This document shows positions 9,148 to 62,677 of a stretch of DNA of 64,000 nucleotides, one piece after another; positions within the stretch are counted from its first letter, which is position 1; each line of letters opens with the position of its first letter. Source of the DNA: a virus; the IMG/VR virus record IMGVR_UViG_3300045988_154277; one strand, written 5' to 3'. The notes under the pieces were generated by a model, which saw only the letters and a program-made list of their open reading frames with translations, was not told the origin of the DNA and ran no database searches. The translations under genes were made by a program, and so were the position numbers.

Positions 9148-9921
9148 TTAGAAGAGATTGGAGACCGTATCGGAAGCGGTCTCAGCAGCACCATCTCCGC
9201 AGAAGATCTTCTTCACACCGTAGACGATGGCTGCACCAGCAGCCATACCAACGATGACTCCCATCCCGTAGGATGCTCCGATGGTGAAGGCACTCCCAGC
9301 TTCACGAGCCAGGGTGGAACCATGCCGGTCACGTTCAGCGGGCTTGTTGGGATCGGGATGATCTTCCTGTTCCTCTTTGGGAGTGTCCTTCTTGGGTTCT
9401 TCTTTCGGAACATCCTGCTTGGGGTTGGGATCCACTTTCTTGGACTCCTGTTTGGTGTCCTTGGGATCGACCTTCGGTTCCGTCTTGGGCTGTTCCGGGT
9501 TGCCGTTGGTGTTCTTGGTTTCGGTGTTGACTTTGGTTTCTTCCATTTTGGATTCCTCCTGGTTGTGGTTGGTGTTGTTGGGGTTGATGGTTGCGTTGTT
9601 CTTGTTGTCTTCCATTTTGTTTTCCTCTTTTTGGTTAGGGGTTGTATGGGTTGCTTGTTTGGTTGCATGTTCCTGCAGCAGATCTTCCATCTGCTGACCG
9701 ACGTTGATACCGAATGAGTCTCTCGGGACTTCCTCGGTAAACTCCTCCACAGTAACACCTGTGGGGTTGTTCTCTGGATGATCCAGAGAGATCACAACGG
9801 TTCGACCAGTTGTGATGTTCGGCATATGAGCCGGATAGTCCGGTTCAGTAATGCCAGGACCAGTGAGACCTGGTGCCTGGTTTTCGAATGAACCACGGAA
9901 TTTGTGTCGTTTGTGTCCCAT
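9148..9921 (-). CDS. low-complexity Lys/Glu/Pro/Thr/Asn-rich protein with C-terminal glycine-zipper transmembrane helix
   Basis: 257 aa; AAGGAGG RBS; C-term ...GASYGMGVIVGMAAGAAIVYGV; the opposite-strand ORF 9145..9717 is hydrophobic antisense junk. Confidence 0.5.
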   Translation of the reverse strand: MGHKRHKFRGSFENQAPGLTGPGITEPDYPAHMPNITTGRTVVISLDHPENNPTGVTVEEFTEEVPRDSFGINVGQQMEDLLQEHATKQATHTTPNQKEENKMEDNKNNATINPNNTNHNQEESKMEETKVNTETKNTNGNPEQPKTEPKVDPKDTKQESKKVDPNPKQDVPKEEPKKDTPKEEQEDHPDPNKPAERDRHGSTLAREAGSAFTIGASYGMGVIVGMAAGAAIVYGVKKIFCGDGAAETASDTVSNLF

Positions 9922-10350: not shown

Positions 10351-10387
10351 AGTTATATATATTCGAAATATTTTGAACTACACTTTT
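10351..10387 (+). promoter_or_regulatory. promoter-like element; the 33-mer 10355..10387 is identical to 39695..39727
   Basis: agtTatatatattcgaaatattttgaactacactttt vs agtAatatatattcgaaatattttgaactacactttt; ~60 nt upstream of the ATG at 10449. Confidence 0.6.
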
Positions 10388-10448
10388 AGATAGAGTACTC
10401 TGTGTTGATCCGAGATGCTATGTCCATATACAGAAGGAGGACATAAGC

Positions 10449-10867
10449 ATGAGTGCTAAAATCTACACAAATGGAAAGTGGGTTGATCTTTCCCCTGCTA
10501 CGGGGGGGGGGTAATCAGTCTTGGAGACTCCGTGTTTGAAAACCAATTGTCGTCCGAGAATGGTGTTCGATTCGGATCGCAAGCAACAGCTACATCGTTC
10601 GTTCAAATGTCATTCCGTTATGCTGGAAAATCAGATGCAACAGGAACGGGATACATCGCGGTAGGAGAACAAGATCGATCTGTTGATCCTAAAACGTTTA
10701 CACGAAGAGGATATCTGCTTATCCCCTTGACAGATGCTGGATATTACTCTGTATCCTTTGTAGTATCCGAAGGTATGTATCCTGCGTGGAAGTTTGAAGA
10801 AGGTAAGTCGTTTGGAAACATCCTTACATATATGACCACCACACCACTCACGATCGTATCAAACTGA
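10449..10867 (+). pseudogene. poly-G-interrupted (frameshifted or phase-variable) homolog of the small late gene 58975..59181
   Basis: ATG 10449 frame gives MSAKIYTNGKWVDLSPATGGG* ending right after G10 (10502-10511); frame of ORF 10532..10867 is open back through the G tract; +1 G fuses them into ~139 aa resembling MSKAKIYINGAWVDLGG... of 58975. Confidence 0.6.
10502..10511 (+). repeat. G10 homopolymer followed by TAAT, candidate slippage site
   Basis: cGGGGGGGGGGtaat; same context as the G11 tract at 54082..54092. Confidence 0.8.
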
Positions 10868-10883
10868 TCTCGATATAAAAGAA

Positions 10884-10918
10884 GAACTACAGGGAGTTGG
10901 TTAGACTCCCTGTAGTTC
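10884..10918. terminator. bidirectional hairpin terminator (14-bp stem); U-tract on the minus side
   Basis: gaactacagggagt-tggttag-actccctgtagttc; minus-strand transcript continues UUCUUUUAUAU. Confidence 0.65.
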
Positions 10919-10929
10919 CATATGTTGCA

Positions 10930-13032
10930 TCATCCGTAAAGGTCCATCAGAAGTGTCTTAGTCTCTTTATTGAGATGAGCCACTCCGATGTTGAGTTTGT
11001 TCAGGACTCGATACAGAGCAGAACAGTTGTGATAGATGATCTTCTTGTAATCCACCAAAGGGATGATCTCTTTGGGGATCGCATTCGCAGCTGGGTTGAT
11101 CAGGACGTTGTTCGGGAACTTCTTATGCTGTTCTACGAACTTCATCGTCTCTTGATAGATGGATTTATTCATCTTCTCAAGCTCCTGATAATAACCGGCT
11201 GTAGGGGTGTACAGGGATACGTAAATCACCTTAGCTGGCGGTTGAACATCCCCGTATTTCTTGGCATAAACAGCTTGCCAGAACATCCAAGCGAAGAACA
11301 CAGAGGTTGACTCAGGATCACTGTAATCTCTCTCATACTTCAAGGATGTGATCTGGAGGAACTCTGTTTCTCCACGTTTGATACTATCCATGATGTTGTG
11401 TTCCCACCCAAGTACTTTATCGATCAACTTATTGGCTGATAGCTTCCCTTGGATGGAAGGATACAACACATCGTTCTCGATGAAGTTCTGGATGAAATCA
11501 AGAGAGGTTGAACAGATCGAAGATCCTCTGAGTGTTTGACCTTTGATATCCGCTTTGGGTTTGGGTAGGATTACTCCTTCCTGCACCGCTTGGATCCCAC
11601 AATACGTCTTCTTGATACCGAAGAGCAACATGATGGGATAGAGGAACTCATTCTTCATCGCCAGCACACGACGATGCTCAGGAGATACCCCATGAAGGAT
11701 ACTGTATCGATAGCAAGCGTGACGAACACTATGATGGAGCCAGTAGATCACCAAGGAAGTGATCTGATAACTCTCATCTGTGATGTCATAGTGGATCCCA
11801 CCACGATACCAATCATCCCACTCAGCAGCTGTGAAGATTTCACTATCCGTATCACTGATGATAACGGTGTTCCGCCAGGTCATTTGTTTCTTACGAACCT
11901 CTGGAACATCCGCATCTGTGTTGACGAACGTATCGAACAGGAGATCCAGCATGTGGACTTTCTTCTCGATGCTCTTACAGTAAGCTACCACCTTCGGGAT
12001 CAACTCTGGATGTTCTTCCACGATGATCTTGATCGAGTAGTTGTTGAACTCCTTCGCAAGACCCACTGTTGTGATCGCCAGCACCGTCTCATCTTGTTTG
12101 AAGATATCATCCGCTGTTACATTCGGATCGATCTGTACTTTACTGGTATCGAACACATAGTGGATGAACCCTTTGAAGATCTCAGAGTTGTACCACATGA
12201 TGTGTCTCAGATTACAGTAGTAGAAGAGGAAAGTCACTTCCAATGGGGTGAGTCGACTTACCAGTCGGTCTACAGAAGCCATCTGACAACCAGGACAGTA
12301 CCGATGTAATGTCTCAGTGTAGAAATCGATCAGCTGCATGTGATCGATCATCTTCAGTTTATACTTCTGGATCGCTTGGTTGATCTGATCATCCGAAGGA
12401 CGCAACCTTAAGTTAAGTAGGATGTGGTTCACCAGTTCATCTTCACTGAACCAGGAGAAGTTCCCACCCAACAACTGTTCTGCTACCGTGTATGCTCTTA
12501 CGATCATACAGCGAGCAGCAGATGTGATCGTGTTGTATCCCGGTTTATCATAGAAGATATTGAACGGAGATCCGAATCCTCCAGGTAGACTGTTACAGTT
12601 GATCTTGATCGTAGCTTGCTGATACCAGCAACGCTTCGCTTCCAAGTCATCACCCACCGCTTCTGCAGCAAGTTGTTTCTTCTTAACCTTCTTACGTTCT
12701 TTCAGCTTATCGACGACCATCTCTGCGATGAACGAAGATTGTTCGATCGTTGGTTTGTACATCGATCCAGCTGGTGTGATTACTTTGGATTTTTGTTGAT
12801 TCAAGAACTGGTAGAAATCTTCCTCCACGATCTTCTCATTCCCAGGAGAGACCGTCTTATTGTAAATAACTCGTTTACTCTGATATCGTTCTCGGAAGGT
12901 ATCCTTCAGGAACCGTTTGATCTCATTATCATCTTCAAATCCAGTCATCCTCTTTAGATAGTCATAATGCATCCGCATCGCTTCCTGGAAGATATCGGGT
13001 CTTACTATCTGATCGGTTGTTAGCATATTCAC
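10930..13032 (-). CDS. large hypothetical protein (700 aa) with acidic DTDS / LYPSI motifs of unknown significance
   Basis: Long ORF, balanced composition; ...VIISDTDSEIF...RGGIHYDITDE...NDVLYPSIQ...; no P-loop. Confidence 0.65.
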   Translation of the reverse strand: MNMLTTDQIVRPDIFQEAMRMHYDYLKRMTGFEDDNEIKRFLKDTFRERYQSKRVIYNKTVSPGNEKIVEEDFYQFLNQQKSKVITPAGSMYKPTIEQSSFIAEMVVDKLKERKKVKKKQLAAEAVGDDLEAKRCWYQQATIKINCNSLPGGFGSPFNIFYDKPGYNTITSAARCMIVRAYTVAEQLLGGNFSWFSEDELVNHILLNLRLRPSDDQINQAIQKYKLKMIDHMQLIDFYTETLHRYCPGCQMASVDRLVSRLTPLEVTFLFYYCNLRHIMWYNSEIFKGFIHYVFDTSKVQIDPNVTADDIFKQDETVLAITTVGLAKEFNNYSIKIIVEEHPELIPKVVAYCKSIEKKVHMLDLLFDTFVNTDADVPEVRKKQMTWRNTVIISDTDSEIFTAAEWDDWYRGGIHYDITDESYQITSLVIYWLHHSVRHACYRYSILHGVSPEHRRVLAMKNEFLYPIMLLFGIKKTYCGIQAVQEGVILPKPKADIKGQTLRGSSICSTSLDFIQNFIENDVLYPSIQGKLSANKLIDKVLGWEHNIMDSIKRGETEFLQITSLKYERDYSDPESTSVFFAWMFWQAVYAKKYGDVQPPAKVIYVSLYTPTAGYYQELEKMNKSIYQETMKFVEQHKKFPNNVLINPAANAIPKEIIPLVDYKKIIYHNCSALYRVLNKLNIGVAHLNKETKTLLMDLYG

Positions 13033-14358: not shown

Positions 14359-14880
14359 ATGAAAACACAACCTGTCAATACCGCTGTACAAACTGCAGTG
14401 ATCCGCGAATCTGCGATCGTAGCTCTTCTGGAAGACTACGGGAGATTCCTTCTGAAACATCAACGTGTCTCTTCGATGGAAGAGTGTCGGGATAAGATCG
14501 GACAGATCATCAGTCTCGCCATGGATCGAGGAGATGCTACCCAGAACACTCTCGCTCACATCGAACGTTGGCTCTCCAAGAGAACGGTCAGCACAGACTT
14601 CACTTGTTGCTGCAAGAGGATCGAAAAGTATCTCAGTCACGCTCTTGTGGAAGAGATGGGTGAGGTAATGCAGGAACACAATGTCGCATCGGATGACCCG
14701 AGTTATGCTGAATTCAAACAAGTGTACGATATTTATCTTCAGTGCAAACAAGCGACGGAAGCTCTGATTGCGAAGTATGGTCAACAGGTCAAATCGATTG
14801 CTGCTCAATTCATCACGGAATACAAGCAGGCGTTCGATCCGGAGTTCGTTGCCAAAGTGGAACAAGCGAAGAACTGCTAA
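14359..14880 (+). CDS. hypothetical protein
   Basis: 173-aa ORF with AAGGA RBS, followed by terminator. Confidence 0.55.
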   Translation: MKTQPVNTAVQTAVIRESAIVALLEDYGRFLLKHQRVSSMEECRDKIGQIISLAMDRGDATQNTLAHIERWLSKRTVSTDFTCCCKRIEKYLSHALVEEMGEVMQEHNVASDDPSYAEFKQVYDIYLQCKQATEALIAKYGQQVKSIAAQFITEYKQAFDPEFVAKVEQAKNC

Positions 14881-14889
14881 CATTTAATT

Positions 14890-14921
14890 ACTGATGGGTG
14901 GTTGTGTGACCACCCATCAGT
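14890..14921 (+). terminator. rho-independent terminator
   Basis: actgatgggtgg-ttgtgtga-ccacccatcagt then tatatttctatc. Confidence 0.7.
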
Positions 14922-14959
14922 ATATTTCTATCTATGCGGATGATCCTACCTTATAGGAG

Positions 14960-15724
14960 GTGGTGAATATGGAACCTAATGATGTTAAATATTTCTTAGA
15001 ACAACTGAAGCTCGTGTTCTCTTCGTTGTTCGCAAGACAGATGTCGTATGTGATCTTCGGATGTCCGAAGTTACAAGACAACGAACTGTTGTTCTCTAAT
15101 GTGGACTCAGTAGCGATTGAAGTTTACGAGAACGATCCGGAGTTCTACTTTCACAAAGTAACGATCCATGATCAACGATTCTTGGATCTTCTGTATCAGC
15201 AGTATCCGATATTGAAATCTCATGTAATCTGTATGGATGTGAAGACATTCATGTCAGCTGTGAACAAATCAACCAAGTCGCTGACAGAGAGCAAATTGTC
15301 CTTGGCTGAGCAGGAGCTTCTCTTCGAATGTCAGGAGATTTCGATACCCTGTGGACAGATGATTTCAGAGTTCACAGCGAACCATTATTACGACATCTTC
15401 TTATCCGGATTACCGGATGGTGAAGATCCGTATGTGGTACAGTTACAACTGGATCAGATCGATCCGACGAAGATTACATATTTGGATATCAATGACCACG
15501 GTGGTCAGACGATCCAGGAGATCCTTCATTCCAGATGTATGTTGTTACAAGGTAAGAATATCATCTCTACGAAGGAGTATATCCCGAAGTCCAAGATATC
15601 CGAGTACACCTTACAGTTAACAGCAGGCGGAACCAAACAAGCACTGAAAGTGTCGATGATGTTCCAGAATGAGTTGTTATCTGTCGTATCCTCACAACCT
15701 GGGATACGGTATTACGTACGATAG
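14960..15724 (+). CDS. hypothetical protein
   Basis: 254-aa ORF; RBS taggaggtggtgaatATG. Confidence 0.6.
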   Translation: MVNMEPNDVKYFLEQLKLVFSSLFARQMSYVIFGCPKLQDNELLFSNVDSVAIEVYENDPEFYFHKVTIHDQRFLDLLYQQYPILKSHVICMDVKTFMSAVNKSTKSLTESKLSLAEQELLFECQEISIPCGQMISEFTANHYYDIFLSGLPDGEDPYVVQLQLDQIDPTKITYLDINDHGGQTIQEILHSRCMLLQGKNIISTKEYIPKSKISEYTLQLTAGGTKQALKVSMMFQNELLSVVSSQPGIRYYVR

Positions 15725-39690: not shown

Positions 39691-39727
39691 AGTAATATAT
39701 ATTCGAAATATTTTGAACTACACTTTT
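39691..39727 (+). promoter_or_regulatory. promoter-like element; the 33-mer 39695..39727 is identical to 10355..10387
   Basis: agtaatatatattcgaaatattttgaactacactttt. Confidence 0.6.
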
Positions 39728-39743
39728 CAAGACAGTCGATGGT

Positions 39744-40067
39744 ATGCAAGATAGGAGGTTAACGATGATAGGTAGGATCTTCAGTATATTAAAAGCAATA
39801 TGGGCTCGACCAGCGGTTCAAGCCTCTGTATGGTTGGTGATCGAGAGCATCGCGATCTGGTTGAAAGACTGGATCGTTACATTCTTCAAGAGGAACAGTC
39901 CTTGTTGTGAGCAACCGAAGTCAGAAGACTACACTCCAGGTGAGACGAAAAGTGATCGTAAAACAACTCGAAGAGCTCCTCGTAGGAAGAAATGTTCTAA
40001 GACCCCAACAACCCTTGCTACACCAAGGACTTCTACTCGTAAAACGAGGACGAAACGAAAAGTGTGA
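39744..40067 (+). CDS. small membrane protein with one N-terminal hydrophobic helix and a highly basic Arg/Lys/Thr-rich tail
   Basis: 107 aa (possibly starts at MIGRIF with taggaggttaacgATG); ...IWARPAVQASVWLVIESIAIWL...RKTTRRAPRRKK...RKTRTKRKV. Confidence 0.45.
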   Translation: MQDRRLTMIGRIFSILKAIWARPAVQASVWLVIESIAIWLKDWIVTFFKRNSPCCEQPKSEDYTPGETKSDRKTTRRAPRRKKCSKTPTTLATPRTSTRKTRTKRKV

Positions 40068-51902: not shown

Positions 51903-52376
51903 ATGAAACAAGTTATCTCTCATAACACCAGAGATCTAACGATCGGTGGTATCATCGATCAGGATCAACTTAAGATCGGTACAACAGGTGGTTCCATCGC
52001 TGGGATCTTTTTCGATACCGGCAAAGAGAACTTCCCTGGGATCCGTTACAACAAAGAGACGTCTCAATGGGAGTCCTCTGTGGACGGTACCACTTGGAAG
52101 ACGTTCGCACAGGAAGGTGCTGTTCCGTATGAAGTGATCAACATTACATCCACGGAATTAACTAGTGGGGTTGCTACGATCACACACAATCTTGGGGTTA
52201 GATACCCCATCGGTCTTGGGTTTACTATAGTTCCAGATGGGATTGAATATGTGGATACCAACACTCTTAAGCTTGATTACAGCAGTCATACTCTCCGCGA
52301 CTTCCATGCCCAAGTGTGGTTTTACAACAGTAAGCAGAGTATGCTTACAGGAGGATCTAGCTCCAATGAAGCCTAA
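51903..52376 (+). CDS. module-family member 2
   Basis: 157 aa; DQDQLKIG and SVDGTTWKTF motifs plus C-terminal module. Confidence 0.6.
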   Translation: MKQVISHNTRDLTIGGIIDQDQLKIGTTGGSIAGIFFDTGKENFPGIRYNKETSQWESSVDGTTWKTFAQEGAVPYEVINITSTELTSGVATITHNLGVRYPIGLGFTIVPDGIEYVDTNTLKLDYSSHTLRDFHAQVWFYNSKQSMLTGGSSSNEA

Positions 52377-54099
52377 TGCAGATATGATAACGAAGGTCTT
52401 GCACAACTTCCGTGTGAACGGTAAGTTCGACCAGGACCAACTGATCATCGGGCGTGGTGTGTATGAACAACTGCAACTGATGATCCAGGAGGGTAGTGAA
52501 GGTGTCGCTACCCTTACATTTGACAATAAGACGTTCTACCGTCGACCGGATCTCGATAAGTATCTGGTGGATGGATGTACGCTCGCGTACGGTGATACAC
52601 TCACTGGTAACCCAACAGCTACACTGTATCGTGGTAGTGAAACCTGGTGTGGTGAGAACTGGTTCGATCCTGAAATGCAGATCGGCAACGACACACCAAC
52701 ATGGGAAGCGACAGGTGGAACCGCTGATAGTCCAGAAGGAACTACTTGGGGTTCCATCTATGACTCTGAAAAGACATTGGTGAGCACATACACCGTTACT
52801 GGAGGAAGTGATCCAATCGGGATTCGGTACACTCCCAGTGTAGCTGGAGAGCGTACGTTCACGATACTCGGGACGACCGATCACCCCGTATTCGATGAGA
52901 CTGTCACACTGTATCCTTACGAGAAACCAGTGAATGATTTTACCAACAGTTGGGTTCTCGCTGAGGAGGATGTGATCTGGATCTCTGATAAATTCACTGA
53001 TCCGGATTTCCCTGGTACCAGATACATCATGTATATTGGAGGCGCCAATGGACCGATGCCGAATCAATGGAGAATCCACACGATCGGTAGTTCGGATGAT
53101 GGAGTTTACGGTGTTGATTGGACTGGTACGAACACTCCTGATTTCCTTGGTGCGCAGGAGAATGTCACCTGGAGCAATGGAGAAGCTTCTGCTTATCCGG
53201 AGACTGTGGATGACTGGTCCACGTCTGGTTATCAGGGTGTTCAGCCAGAATCGTTCAGTATGTCGAACACCGAAGGATCTGATGCTAAACTCGAATACAC
53301 GAACGATGGTACCACTTGGTATCCATTCGGAGGATCTGGTTCTGCAGGGATCACCTATGAGCCGATCGAGTTCACTGGTGATGACCTGCAAGATGATGGT
53401 ACGATCCATATCCAACACGACTTCAACAACAAAAATGTGCTGTGTCTTGGGTGTACCCCACAACCCAAAGAAATCACCTATCTGGACAACAAAATAGTCC
53501 TGGATTACAGTGATCAAAACAGCTCTAATCTTGTTGGTGCTGTTTGGTTCGTAAATAGCAAACAAGAGATGTTGGTAGTTCCTGTAGCACCAGAACCAAG
53601 GAATGTTCCTGAGAATTTGACATCAAACACATCGGATAAGAACTGGTCTATTATGAAGACCTCTGTGAATCCGAGTAATCCGAACGAAGGGCTCGAAAGT
53701 GATGATCCTGAGATGTTCCAGATGTTCGACAATGATGTGTCGACTGGATGTACGTTCTCTGGATCTGCAGGATCTCTCTATCGCTGGAATAGGAGTGACT
53801 TAACTCCTATTAAACCAGAGAAGCTCTATGTCAAACAAGGTGACTTCTTGGATCTTGGTGCTGTTGCGGACGGCATGATGTTGTTCGTTTATGCATCGAA
53901 CACCAAGGTCACTAGCCCGTATGAGACAGGTTCTCTGACTGAGATCGCCAATCACATGGGCGGTGCAGCTGGAACTTACGAGATCGACCTCTCCAGTAAC
54001 AGCCAATCGTTCATCTACTGGTACGTGATGATGGTGAACGCAGAAACCGGAACGATCTACGAGATCGCGGAAGATCCCATCGGGGGGGGGGGTAATTGA
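52366..54099 (+). CDS. module-family member 3 (expanded, receptor-binding-like), ends at the G11 tract
   Basis: ORF track 52237..54099, start at aggaggatctagctccaATG (MKPNADM); contains DQDQLIIG, LEYTNDGTTWYPF and the shared module; terminates ...PIGGGGN* in the G tract. Confidence 0.6.
   Translation: MKPNADMITKVLHNFRVNGKFDQDQLIIGRGVYEQLQLMIQEGSEGVATLTFDNKTFYRRPDLDKYLVDGCTLAYGDTLTGNPTATLYRGSETWCGENWFDPEMQIGNDTPTWEATGGTADSPEGTTWGSIYDSEKTLVSTYTVTGGSDPIGIRYTPSVAGERTFTILGTTDHPVFDETVTLYPYEKPVNDFTNSWVLAEEDVIWISDKFTDPDFPGTRYIMYIGGANGPMPNQWRIHTIGSSDDGVYGVDWTGTNTPDFLGAQENVTWSNGEASAYPETVDDWSTSGYQGVQPESFSMSNTEGSDAKLEYTNDGTTWYPFGGSGSAGITYEPIEFTGDDLQDDGTIHIQHDFNNKNVLCLGCTPQPKEITYLDNKIVLDYSDQNSSNLVGAVWFVNSKQEMLVVPVAPEPRNVPENLTSNTSDKNWSIMKTSVNPSNPNEGLESDDPEMFQMFDNDVSTGCTFSGSAGSLYRWNRSDLTPIKPEKLYVKQGDFLDLGAVADGMMLFVYASNTKVTSPYETGSLTEIANHMGGAAGTYEIDLSSNSQSFIYWYVMMVNAETGTIYEIAEDPIGGGGN
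54082..54092 (+). repeat. G11 homopolymer followed by TAAT at gene end, candidate slippage site
   Basis: cGGGGGGGGGGGtaat; -1 G fuses 52366..54099 to the downstream frame. Confidence 0.8.
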
Positions 54100-54478
54100 C
54101 CCTGAAGAACCACCCGACAACGTCGTTGTAACAAGCCCCATCTACGTCAGTGGTAGTCACCCAACACAAGTGAACTGTGATGGAACGTATGAGACCTACG
54201 ATGGTTCAGCTGCTTCTACAGCAGCTCCCTCCGGTTCAACGACTGTTGCAGTGTACTTCACGATGGGTGGTGGATTCCAAATCACAATAATCCAAAACAA
54301 CACTTCAGGGGAAGTTACATTCTATCTGATGGATGTCAGTTCTCAGATGAATGATGCTGTTGTTTATTTCGTTGGGCATCCTTCTGATACCAGTACGAAC
54401 CATTATGACCCGACGCAAGCTGTCTGGTCACTTGGACAGTATGGTACCGATCCTATCCCAACGATCAGTTTGGAATAA
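54093..54478 (+). CDS. downstream extension frame of 52366..54099 (open back through the G tract; GTG start in ORF track at 54170)
   Basis: Frame open from well upstream through G tract: ...SGGGVIDPEEPPDNVVVTSPIYVSGSHPTQVNCDGTYETYDG...TISLE*. Confidence 0.35.
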
Positions 54479-54841
54479 CCGGTTAAAACCGGATCATTTG
54501 ACGTTGCTGGAGCAGGGACGGCTGGAGTTGATGGTATCTACTACGAGGTACCACATGATCAATATCTGAATTACATCCCGTCATACTTGCCGATCGACGA
54601 AGTATACCGGATCTACACCAACGGGACTTATATGCTCTTGGTGTATGTGTATTCGACCTCTGGTCCGCAGTACAAATTCGGCATATTGAATAACGGTGGA
54701 GATTGGTATATGGAAGAGCTCTACACTAGCAGAAGCTGGTTTACTCATCTGGACGCTGTATCCGTCGTTGGAACATCAACTGTCAATGGTACTGCTCCGG
54801 CACCTACCGTTACTCAGATAAATACAGCATCGGAGGTATGA
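54479..54841 (+). CDS. second extension segment, same frame as 54093..54478, separated only by one TAA (54476-54478)
   Basis: Frame open immediately after the TAA: PVKTGSFDVAGAGTAGVDGIYYEVPHDQ...; ORF track reports it only from a TTG at 54587. Confidence 0.3.
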   Translation, partial: PVKTGSFDVAGAGTAGVDGIYYEVPHDQYLNYIPSYLPIDEVYRIYTNGTYMLLVYVYSTSGPQYKFGILNNGGDWYMEELYTSRSWFTHLDAVSVVGTSTVNGTAPAPTVTQINTASEV

Positions 54842-58974: not shown

Positions 58975-59181
58975 ATGTCTAAAGCAAAGATCTACATCAA
59001 CGGCGCTTGGGTTGACCTAGGAGGAGCAGATATCCAATTCGCAGTTGCACAATCTGCTGGTAATGAAGCAACCAAACAAGTTGTGGTACGACCAGTTACT
59101 ATTGCTGCCGACGGCACCAGCACCTATAGTGGTGAGGCAAGGACCGTACTATACACATTCGATATCCCAACTGGAGCGTAA
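58975..59181 (+). CDS. small protein (68 aa), intact paralog of the poly-G-interrupted gene at 10449
   Basis: ataaggaggactttATG; MSKAKIYINGAWVDLGG...RTVLYTFDIPTGA. Confidence 0.55.
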   Translation: MSKAKIYINGAWVDLGGADIQFAVAQSAGNEATKQVVVRPVTIAADGTSTYSGEARTVLYTFDIPTGA

Positions 59182-61278: not shown

Positions 61279-61313
61279 CATCAGGACTGTGGGTACATCC
61301 CACAGTCCTGATG
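61279..61313 (+). terminator. rho-independent terminator (15-bp stem, T-rich tail)
   Basis: catcaggactgtggg-tacat-cccacagtcctgatg then gtattatatctttt. Confidence 0.7.
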
Positions 61314-61372
61314 GTATTATATCTTTTGCCATGCTATGCAAACACTATTCAACCAACCAAAGGAGCTCTCCT

Positions 61373-62677
61373 ATGGGTGTTATTATCAATCCCGGAGAAA
61401 GACCTTGGTACACTTCCCCAAGTGGCATTACCATAGTTGGTACAACCAAAACGTACCAGACTTGGGACGACATGCTGAAGGAACAGTACCCTGGCAAGTT
61501 AGCTTGGGTGGTAGATGCAACAGGTGACCCGACCGTGAACGAAGGTTCTGCTCTCTATACATGGAGACAACATCAAGGTTGGGTGAAGATCTATGAGACT
61601 GAGTCGATGGATCAGGACATCAACGATGCGATCAACAAGTTCGTTGGTTGGATCGCGAATCCTGAACAGTTGAACACGCTCTATCCAATCGGTGAAGATG
61701 GGATGTTCGCTATCGTAGGAACTACAGACACGATCTGGGTATGGGATAGCGATACGAAGTCCTGGTTGGATACTGGGCAGGACCAGGTTGAAATCAACAA
61801 CAAGTGGGAAAGTATCGAAGGCAAACCGGACTATTTTCCGTCTACATTTGAGTTGGTGATCAACGAGGTCAACAACACTACATTGGCTCAGACGATCAAC
61901 GATCTCACACTGACCGATCAGGATCTGACAACCAGACTGATCACAGTAGAGACGAAGATCAACAACCTTCAGATCTCTGATATCTACGGGTTGCAAGAGA
62001 CCTTCAGTCGCCTGAAACCGATTGCATTTACCTCCAGTTGGAACGACTTAGTCGATATCCCAACTACCTTTACACCATCTGCTCACACGCACAATTGGAC
62101 TGACATCACTAATCCCCCACTGTTCTCTCTGGTAGGACATAAACACGATTGGGGGGATCTGGTAGAAACACCAGACTTCGATGCACTGTATGCACCGATC
62201 GATATCAACTTCGATGATCGGTATGCGATGCTTCAGCATACCCATCAGTGGAGTAATATCCAAGATGTTCCCAACTTCGCATTAGCGAATCACAACCACG
62301 ATACAGTGTATGCCCCAAGGATCCATACACACACGATGACAGAGATCGTGAATCTTACGGAGACTTTGGACACACTTCAAAGAAGCATCGACAACATCCA
62401 AACATCCGTGGATGGTAAAATGTCAACTCCAGATCCGATCTCAGTTGGACAGATGGTTGTACTTGGAGAAGACGGAACCTATCATGGACAAGATATCCCT
62501 GGAGGTGATGTTACTTCTGAGGAGTTCAACAACTTAATCAACCGTGTAACGGTTGTTGAAACCTCCAACACCGATCTGGAACAGCGTGTACAAGCTCTGG
62601 AAGCAGTGGTATTCGAAGTGGATCAACTGGCTGATCAAGCCTTGGATCTGCTTGGATACACTGGACATAGGGAGTGA
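61373..62677 (+). CDS. tail fiber protein with multiple HxH 'phage fibre' repeats; paralog of 46180..47538
   Basis: ORF track 61289..62677, start at aaaggagctctcctATG; repeats SAHTHNWTDI, GHKHDWGDL, LQHTHQWSNI, ANHNHDTVY, RIHTHTMTEI. Confidence 0.7.
   Translation: MGVIINPGERPWYTSPSGITIVGTTKTYQTWDDMLKEQYPGKLAWVVDATGDPTVNEGSALYTWRQHQGWVKIYETESMDQDINDAINKFVGWIANPEQLNTLYPIGEDGMFAIVGTTDTIWVWDSDTKSWLDTGQDQVEINNKWESIEGKPDYFPSTFELVINEVNNTTLAQTINDLTLTDQDLTTRLITVETKINNLQISDIYGLQETFSRLKPIAFTSSWNDLVDIPTTFTPSAHTHNWTDITNPPLFSLVGHKHDWGDLVETPDFDALYAPIDINFDDRYAMLQHTHQWSNIQDVPNFALANHNHDTVYAPRIHTHTMTEIVNLTETLDTLQRSIDNIQTSVDGKMSTPDPISVGQMVVLGEDGTYHGQDIPGGDVTSEEFNNLINRVTVVETSNTDLEQRVQALEAVVFEVDQLADQALDLLGYTGHRE

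Follow-up and report, generated by a model that had tools for sequence, protein, structure and literature searches.

Two poly-G tracts of variable length at frame junctions in a jumbo phage genome, probable contingency loci for fibre modules

Genes split at two poly-G tracts

The 64,000-nt stretch of viral DNA analysed in this work, which we will refer to as the window, contains a small gene whose two parts lie in different reading frames and meet at a run of 10 G's (tract 1). The features of this locus, which extends from position 10356 to 10919, are as follows.

10356..10388, + strand: 33-nt promoter-like element; a second copy at 39696-39728 is identical at 32 of 33 positions, with 0 chance matches expected
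10435..10440, + strand: Shine-Dalgarno sequence AGGAGG, as read from the sequence, 8 nt before the ATG at 10449
10449..10514, + strand: 5' part of the gene, comprising the N-terminal motif MSAKIYTNGKWVDL and a Gly linker; terminated by TAA in the G10 (OFF) state
10502..10511, + strand: poly-G tract 1; G10 here, which is OFF; ON at G8 or G11
10511..10867, + strand: gene body of 118 codons and a stop, read in the -1 frame; hypervariable cassette with a predicted jelly-roll domain
10883..10919, no strand assigned: 15-bp terminator-like hairpin between the convergent small gene and DNA polymerase gene; conserved in the related contigs L001-L003

The frame that begins at ATG 10449 reads MSAKIYTNGKWVDLSPATGGG (21 codons) and then encounters TAA at 10512-10514, directly 3' of the G run. 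The downstream frame is open from 10487, and the insertion of one G in the tract leads to a 139-aa product, MSAKIYTNGKWVDLSPATGGGVISLGDS.... A first-pass annotation of the window had described this arrangement, viz. a short ORF from ATG 10449 that is closed by TAA after 10 G's, a following ORF (10532..10867) that stays open back through the run, a fusion product of ~139 aa upon addition of one G, and a conserved 33-nt element preceding the locus, and our examination bears out all of these points. The 33-nt element may function as a promoter, and no sigma-70-like site was found at it. Its second copy precedes an unrelated small gene (ATG 39766..40067), whose product is hydrophobic at the N-terminus and strongly basic in its tail, and a related version of the element is located upstream of the 629-aa counterpart gene in L007 that is described below. 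Upstream of the locus, a 257-aa ORF (9148-9921, - strand) contains a long low-complexity region rich in Lys, Pro, Glu, and Asn, encoded by imperfect 21-27-nt tandem repeats; the 7-9 kb region around it is among those less conserved between lineages (84-90% identity). Searches for tRNAs and for notable tandem repeats found neither.

The first-pass annotation had also regarded an intact gene near the other end of the window as a homolog of the small gene:

58975..59181, + strand: gene for a 68-aa protein, sharing the N-terminal AKIY.NG.WVDL motif only

This proposal stands for the N-terminal motif, in which 10 of the 12 residues are identical, but not for the internal motif, which gives no alignment. 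As the 12-residue motif is all that is shared, the argument from homology is weak. The motif MSAKIYTNGKWVDL is common to the product of this gene (p68) and to the 629-aa protein from L007 (P0007).

A second run, consisting of G11 at 54082-54092 (tract 2), was absent from the first-pass annotation and has the same layout as tract 1. It is found within a gene of the fibre cluster, whose neighbours contain Laminin_G_3 domains and show matches to tail-fibre families in PHROGs.

52366..54099, + strand: fibre-cluster gene, conserved N-terminal part of 577 aa, ending ...EDPIGGGGN-stop in the G11 (OFF) state; 577 aa are also called in L008
54082..54092, + strand: poly-G tract 2; G11 here, which is OFF; ON at G10
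54092..54478, + strand: linker VIDPEEP followed by C-terminal module A, read in the +1 frame with respect to the part upstream; frame open from 54038
54479..54841, + strand: module B, in the frame of module A; cut off here by TAA 54476-54478

A run of G10 in tract 2 would fuse the 577-aa part with the following ORF, and both tracts are OFF in the window. Each of them is followed by TAA(T), so that products read out of frame end at the linker or extend past it by a few codons. The TAA at 54476-54478 is located at a module boundary, and after it come the palindrome CCGGTTAAAACCGG and 120 further open codons. Relatives read through this position, with CAA in L005 and proteins of 819 aa (P0016), 263 aa (P0026), and 718 aa (P0027); in the lineage of the window, the stop could be a lineage-specific nonsense mutation or would possibly be read through.

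Both tracts are real and non-random. The G runs in the window include 46 of length 4, four of length 5, and one of length 6, followed only by those of 10 and 11, and the number of runs of at least 10 expected by chance is 0.009-0.023. The runs of A, C, and T do not exceed 7, and the two homopolymers longer than 7 nt that are present in 64 kb are both coding-strand G runs at frame junctions. The share of GGG among the Gly codons of the window's genes is 14%. Both tracts are uninterrupted mononucleotide repeats of at least ~8 nt within a reading frame, and the pure tract has been retained by lineages whose identity in the neighbouring cassette is 65-88%, a pattern indicative of the maintenance of a contingency locus. 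One relative, L004, carries an interrupted in-frame allele of tract 2, GGGGGTGGGG.

Tract length and reading frame in related phages

The source of the window is an uncultivated jumbo phage of ~278 kb, distantly phiKZ-like, from gut metagenomes whose sample prefixes resemble the names of human-gut cohorts, suggesting that they are human. A metagenome scaffold of 278,450 nt (L011, L008) matches the window at 100% / 99.99% identity, one short twin contig of the window is labelled "gut metagenome," and related contigs of ~278-281 kb were found across many samples. The GC content of the phage is 46%. Its DNA polymerase (10930..13032, minus strand) shows 25-27% identity to the polymerases of phiKZ-like jumbo phages, and of the queries it alone gave such matches. 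Megablast of the locus against 50,697 phage records gave no match, and neither did tblastn of the fused protein against these records, even at E-values up to 10; IMG/VR and JGI metagenomes, searched with protein patterns and an exact 39-nt pattern, likewise yielded nothing. All relatives that were used derive from the ENA/Logan protein collection and comprise dozens of contigs from MEGAHIT, scaffold-type, and Logan assemblies. The tract lengths found in them, which are in all cases the assembled consensus of short-read metagenomes where long G runs are error-prone, are listed below.

Tract 1, G8: P0045, deduced from the protein (1 contig)
Tract 1, G9: L001/P0001 (4 contigs), P0044, P0043 (2), P0047, L003
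Tract 1, G10: window, L011-L014/P0040 (8 contigs), P0042 (3)
Tract 1, G11: L002, L015
Tract 1, G12: P0048, deduced from the protein (1 contig)
Tract 2, G8: five protein variants ending PLGGGN-stop, deduced
Tract 2, G9: L005, L006, and seven variants ending GGG-stop
Tract 2, G10: L016-L018/P0027 (4 contigs, pure run seen), P0016 (819 aa), P0009/P0015 (697 aa), P0038
Tract 2, G11: window, L008, P0017, P0012

The length of the tract differs between otherwise identical genomes and decides the reading frame. At tract 1, G8 and G11 lead to a protein of 138/139 aa, and with G9, G10, or G12 the product is truncated. At tract 2, where G12 was not seen among the compared contigs, products of 697-819 aa are specified by G10 and products of 575-578 aa by G8, G9, and G11. 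The pure G10 run in L016-L018 gives a continuous 718-aa protein, and P0016, P0027, P0009, P0015, and P0038 all have module A joined to the upstream part without a break. Between L001 (G9) and L012 (G10) there are 0 mismatches over 880 nt upstream and 3,300 nt downstream of tract 1 (4,180 nt). Our guess, based on patterns in their accessions and contig sizes, is that these two contigs may represent the same sample assembled twice, in which case their difference could be read noise as well as real heterogeneity. In-frame contigs account for ~3 of ~25 at tract 1 and ~14 of ~39 at tract 2. The ON share at tract 1 is below the 1/3 expected under free drift, and in view of this rarity, expression could be independent of the DNA being in frame.

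The two ORFs at tract 1 are parts of one gene under purifying selection. Continuous homologs of 139 aa are found in P0002 and P0046, pure G11 is seen in L002 and L015, and P0045 is continuous over 138 aa (...PATGGVISLG), implying G8. In L007, a more distant jumbo phage than the other relatives, the same genomic position is occupied by a lone plus-strand gene, adjoining the divergent DNA polymerase gene, whose 629-aa product P0007 (N-terminus MSAKIYVNGIWMDLS) has both parts joined without a G run; its terminal domain shows 40% identity with the small protein over residues 26-122 of the latter. In comparisons of three alleles, the 118 codons of the body contain no indel or stop at dS values of up to 1.5, the dN/dS is 0.18-0.20 at a dS of 0.57-1.48, and in L003 none of the first three substitutions 3' of the tract alters an amino acid of the downstream frame. 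A dN/dS of ~0.2 indicates that the body is translated. It could be argued, from a GGAG located 5 nt upstream of GTG 10532, from the 111-aa product that gene callers annotate and from the TAA at 54476 that the tract 2 gene also has in this lineage, that these are decaying pseudogenes, or that the downstream ORF is a separate gene that starts from this GTG, with the G run being an irrelevant mutational scar. However, decay is contradicted by the dN/dS value and the intact ORFs, the VISLG codons between tract 1 and the GTG have been kept through synonymous changes, and the tract stays pure in diverged lineages; hence, we consider this explanation to be very improbable. GTG 10532 was also examined as an independent start, but L002 has GGG in its place and L003 lacks the codon, and due to this lack of conservation independent initiation is unlikely.

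The versions of this 139-aa gene that are reported by gene callers are of 86, 111, 131, 132, and 137 aa. Several of the mis-called versions have a wrong-frame N-terminus (MLKSTQMESGLIFPLLRGG...) that starts from GTG 10453; with G9 in the tract, this alternative frame is already open 4 nt past the true ATG. A locked-ON form of the tract, in which GGG is changed to GGT/GGA, would be GGTGGAGGT, and the predicted junction-spanning peptides of the full-length products are ...SPATGGGVISLGDSVFENQ... and ...EDPIGGGVIDPEEPP....

Both short-read chemistry and PCR have difficulty with long G runs, and two of the assemblies that are possibly duplicates differ by one G. It may thus be suggested that the true tracts are in frame everywhere (G11 and G10 for tracts 1 and 2, respectively) and that all other lengths are errors of sequencing or assembly. 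However, scattered errors should leave the true in-frame length as the commonest consensus, whereas the majority of contigs at tract 1 are out of frame (G10 in 8+3 contigs and G9 in ~9). Additionally, lengths of 8-12 at tract 1 and of 8-11 at tract 2 are distributed over dozens of contigs and three assembly types, and identical out-of-frame lengths recur in independent samples. Pure sequencing error is therefore unlikely, and we give little credence to the suggestion that the tracts are in frame everywhere.

Conserved anchors and recombining modules at the tracts

Searches of Pfam and PHROGs found no family for either of the tract-bearing proteins. A first AF2 model of the small protein, based upon 4 sequences, had a pLDDT of 56 and only weak Foldseek matches (E >0.001), and it was replaced by an AlphaFold model based upon 7 sequences, which has a pLDDT of 74. 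In this model, a beta-hairpin is predicted with low confidence for residues 1-14, and a jelly-roll with high confidence for residues 40-135 (pLDDT 83-89). Between them, residues 15-27, among which is the GGG of the tract, have a pLDDT of <50 and hence look like a linker. The C-terminal domain of the small protein is thus predicted to be a jelly-roll like those of fibre tips, although the fold is generic and capsid proteins match it as well. The product of the tract 1 gene is probably a tail-fibre tip protein, and both of the tract-bearing proteins may take part in receptor binding.

The sequence around tract 1 is conserved on both sides of a divergent cassette. The 5' region (promoter-like element, 18 codons, tract, and TAAT) is 100% identical in all lineages, and this is also the case for the 63 nt of the 5' part in the window, L001, L002, L003, and L015; the 3' flank, consisting of the last 8 codons and the terminator hairpin, is likewise conserved. 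The cassette itself is 67-76% identical to that of L003 vs. a genome background of ~97%. Across tract 2, the similarity of the window to L016 changes from 87% upstream to 99.25% downstream, and that to L005 from 94.8% upstream to 77% downstream. In view of the divergence of the cassette at tract 1 and of this flip in similarity at tract 2, the tracts lie at recombination or mosaic junctions. At both of them, the tract encodes a Gly linker that joins a conserved N-terminal part to hypervariable, recombining C-terminal modules, and at tract 2 the conserved VIDPEEP linker is followed by shuffled modules in at least five architectures.

It is conceivable, though we hold this only tentatively, that the poly-G together with its conserved flanks forms a dedicated cassette junction, serving both as a hypermutable switch and as a point of homology for the swapping of modules, with the promoter, 18 codons, and G(n)TAA as its 5' flank and the last 8 codons and terminator as its 3' flank. 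If this is the case, one lineage of jumbo phages would combine the shuffling of modules with stochastic expression, and stuttering of the RNA polymerase encoded by the phage itself might further add a mixture of fibre isoforms in each burst.

Proposed mechanism and relationship to known systems

The tract 1 length differs between otherwise identical copies, and it is thus most likely a mutational on/off switch. The interpretation that we favor, with a probability of about 0.72, is that both tracts are slipped-strand contingency loci which switch fibre modules. According to this interpretation, slipped-strand mispairing during the replication of phage DNA would add or remove G's at the tracts, and the GGG glycine codons of each tract would form a flexible linker between the conserved N-terminal and the variable C-terminal part. 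With G8 or G11 at tract 1, the 139-aa protein would be made, consisting of the N-terminal beta-hairpin motif, the Gly linker, and a domain resembling a jelly-roll tip, and with G9, G10, or G12 translation would halt just past the linker. Similarly, at tract 2, the 577-aa fibre-cluster protein would gain its distal modules with G10 and would end at the linker with G8, G9, or G11. Because of such switching, which we expect to be reversible and to generate heterogeneity within a population, a phage population would contain both virions that carry the tip modules and virions that lack them, and such mixtures could be adaptive as bet-hedging on variation in the host surface.

The first-pass annotation had left the choice between phase variation and programmed frameshifting or slippage. 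Of these, phase variation is supported by the lengths of G8-G12 among the relatives. A fixed programmed ribosomal frameshift is not supported, since the five lengths span all three frames, including in-frame alleles, and no significant or conserved 3' structure was found. A broader possibility is that RNA-level recoding, by stuttering of the RNA polymerase of phage or host or by a ribosome shift on GGG GGG GGG by the stop, is the main route to the full-length protein; every genotype would then make some of this protein and the length of the DNA tract would be nearly neutral. Such recoding would suit the predominance of out-of-frame G9 and G10 at tract 1 (~20 of ~25 contigs) in a gene whose body is under purifying selection, as well as the facts that the gain or loss of a single G would turn each OFF length ON and that TAA follows directly after the run in one of the OFF frames. 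However, the slippery sequence does not vary at known programmed sites, whereas the out-of-frame arrangement is not conserved here and in-frame alleles occur. The sequence directly 3' of tract 1 diverges in L003, a search of Rfam found no family, and a stimulatory RNA structure that is significant or conserved was not found 3' of either tract (z -0.8 to +0.9; individual fold z-scores of -0.80, -0.33, +0.90, +0.06, and -0.28). With regard to transcriptional slippage, the run is long enough (at least 9 nt), but it is composed of G and not of A/T, and to our knowledge the well-studied bacterial examples involve runs of A or T rather than G. RNA recoding is therefore unlikely to be the main route, but it is compatible with variation at the DNA level and both could operate; stuttering of the RNA polymerase would help to explain the out-of-frame predominance at tract 1.

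Switching of fibre proteins by slipped-strand mispairing, as we propose it, follows a principle that is already established for poly-G tracts in phages, although the present case is not a sequence relative of the known ones. We know of experimental demonstrations of the poly-G switching of receptor-binding proteins only in Campylobacter phages. In the Fletchervirus group of these phages, the genes for receptor-binding proteins carry poly-G runs of 7-11 G (Sorensen et al., 2021, Cell Rep 35:109214; as described by PMC12633550 and cited by PMC12823448). The two systems are alike in having uninterrupted G runs (7-11 there vs. 8-12 here) inside genes of the tail or receptor-binding type, and in length changes that shift the frame to produce subpopulations with different fibre proteins, which for the present phage is a prediction from its sequence. 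They differ in that no sequence relationship was detected between them (tblastn, 50,697 phage records, no match), in that the Fletchervirus members are T4-like phages of Campylobacter whereas the phage studied here is a phiKZ-like gut jumbo phage of ~278 kb with 46% GC, and in the location of the present tracts exactly in Gly linkers at the junctions of conserved anchors and swapped modules.

In a 2025 preprint, Gomez, Barrick and Waters describe mononucleotide repeats in phage ORFs that give rise to reversible frameshifts by polymerase slippage, which they read as bet-hedging (PMC12633550). They argue that contingency loci are general in phages, but found such repeats to be depleted in the tail-fibre genes of coliphages, and they also report poly-G runs in a methylase gene of BPP-1 and in a PB1-like baseplate gene (PMC12633550). 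In view of this depletion, the location of the present tracts in fibre genes is notable, though not unprecedented. Most of the contingency loci that it describes in T-even and other phages are A runs 6-9 nt long, found for instance in agt and rIIA (PMC12633550), whereas the long repeats here are only G runs in fibre-type genes. The poly-G phase variation of bacteria (Campylobacter, Neisseria, Haemophilus) resembles the present case in having a G run of at least 8 within an ORF, a return to the ON state with every three G's, and premature termination in either OFF frame; unlike the bacterial loci, the present tracts are borne by a virus, and at tract 2 it is a C-terminal module that is switched and not an enzyme that is lost from its N-terminus onward. 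The invertible tail-fibre segments of Mu and P1 and the retroelement of Bordetella phage BPP-1 also produce alternative C-terminal ends of fibres, which is the purpose that we propose here, but the mechanism differs, as in an unsystematic look no invertase, inverted repeats, reverse transcriptase, or adenine-specific pattern was seen near the tracts. A diversity-generating retroelement seems unlikely, given that the cassette shows substitutions of every type and that no reverse transcriptase was noticed in its vicinity. The programmed -1 frameshift in genes for tail assembly chaperones, of the lambda G/GT type, is similar in that a tail gene region yields two products from frames that overlap; however, it depends upon a fixed heptameric slippery site and a conserved out-of-frame arrangement, whereas the tracts described here vary in length and have in-frame alleles.

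If our interpretation is correct, these results would extend poly-G phase variation in phages to jumbo phages and to the gut. The carrier is an abundant and geographically widespread gut jumbo phage, for which natural length variants are present in dozens of metagenomes, and the tracts could provide a sequence-defined marker for following the tropism states of a phage in metagenomic reads. As annotation pipelines split or mis-start such genes, their mis-annotation is likely to be systematic.

Some additional features of the fibre clusters may be mentioned here. A 462-aa protein encoded at 61289-62677 of the window has repeated His-x-His motifs (HTHNW, HKHDW, HTHQW, HNHD, HTHT) and PHROG tail-fibre matches, and we take it to resemble the metal-binding fibre shafts of T4-type long tail fibres. 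The protein P0033, from one Logan contig of 11,802 nt, ends ...EDPLGN-stop, implying that tract 2 is down to two G's, and this collapse could be either a real deletion or an assembly artefact. Lastly, the tail-fibre cluster of the related phage L006 contains an IS605-type TnpB gene (14449-15681, - strand; OrfB_IS605 / Cas12f1-like_TNB), and at the same locus a C8 run (10450-10457) ends a truncated copy of module A (P0006).
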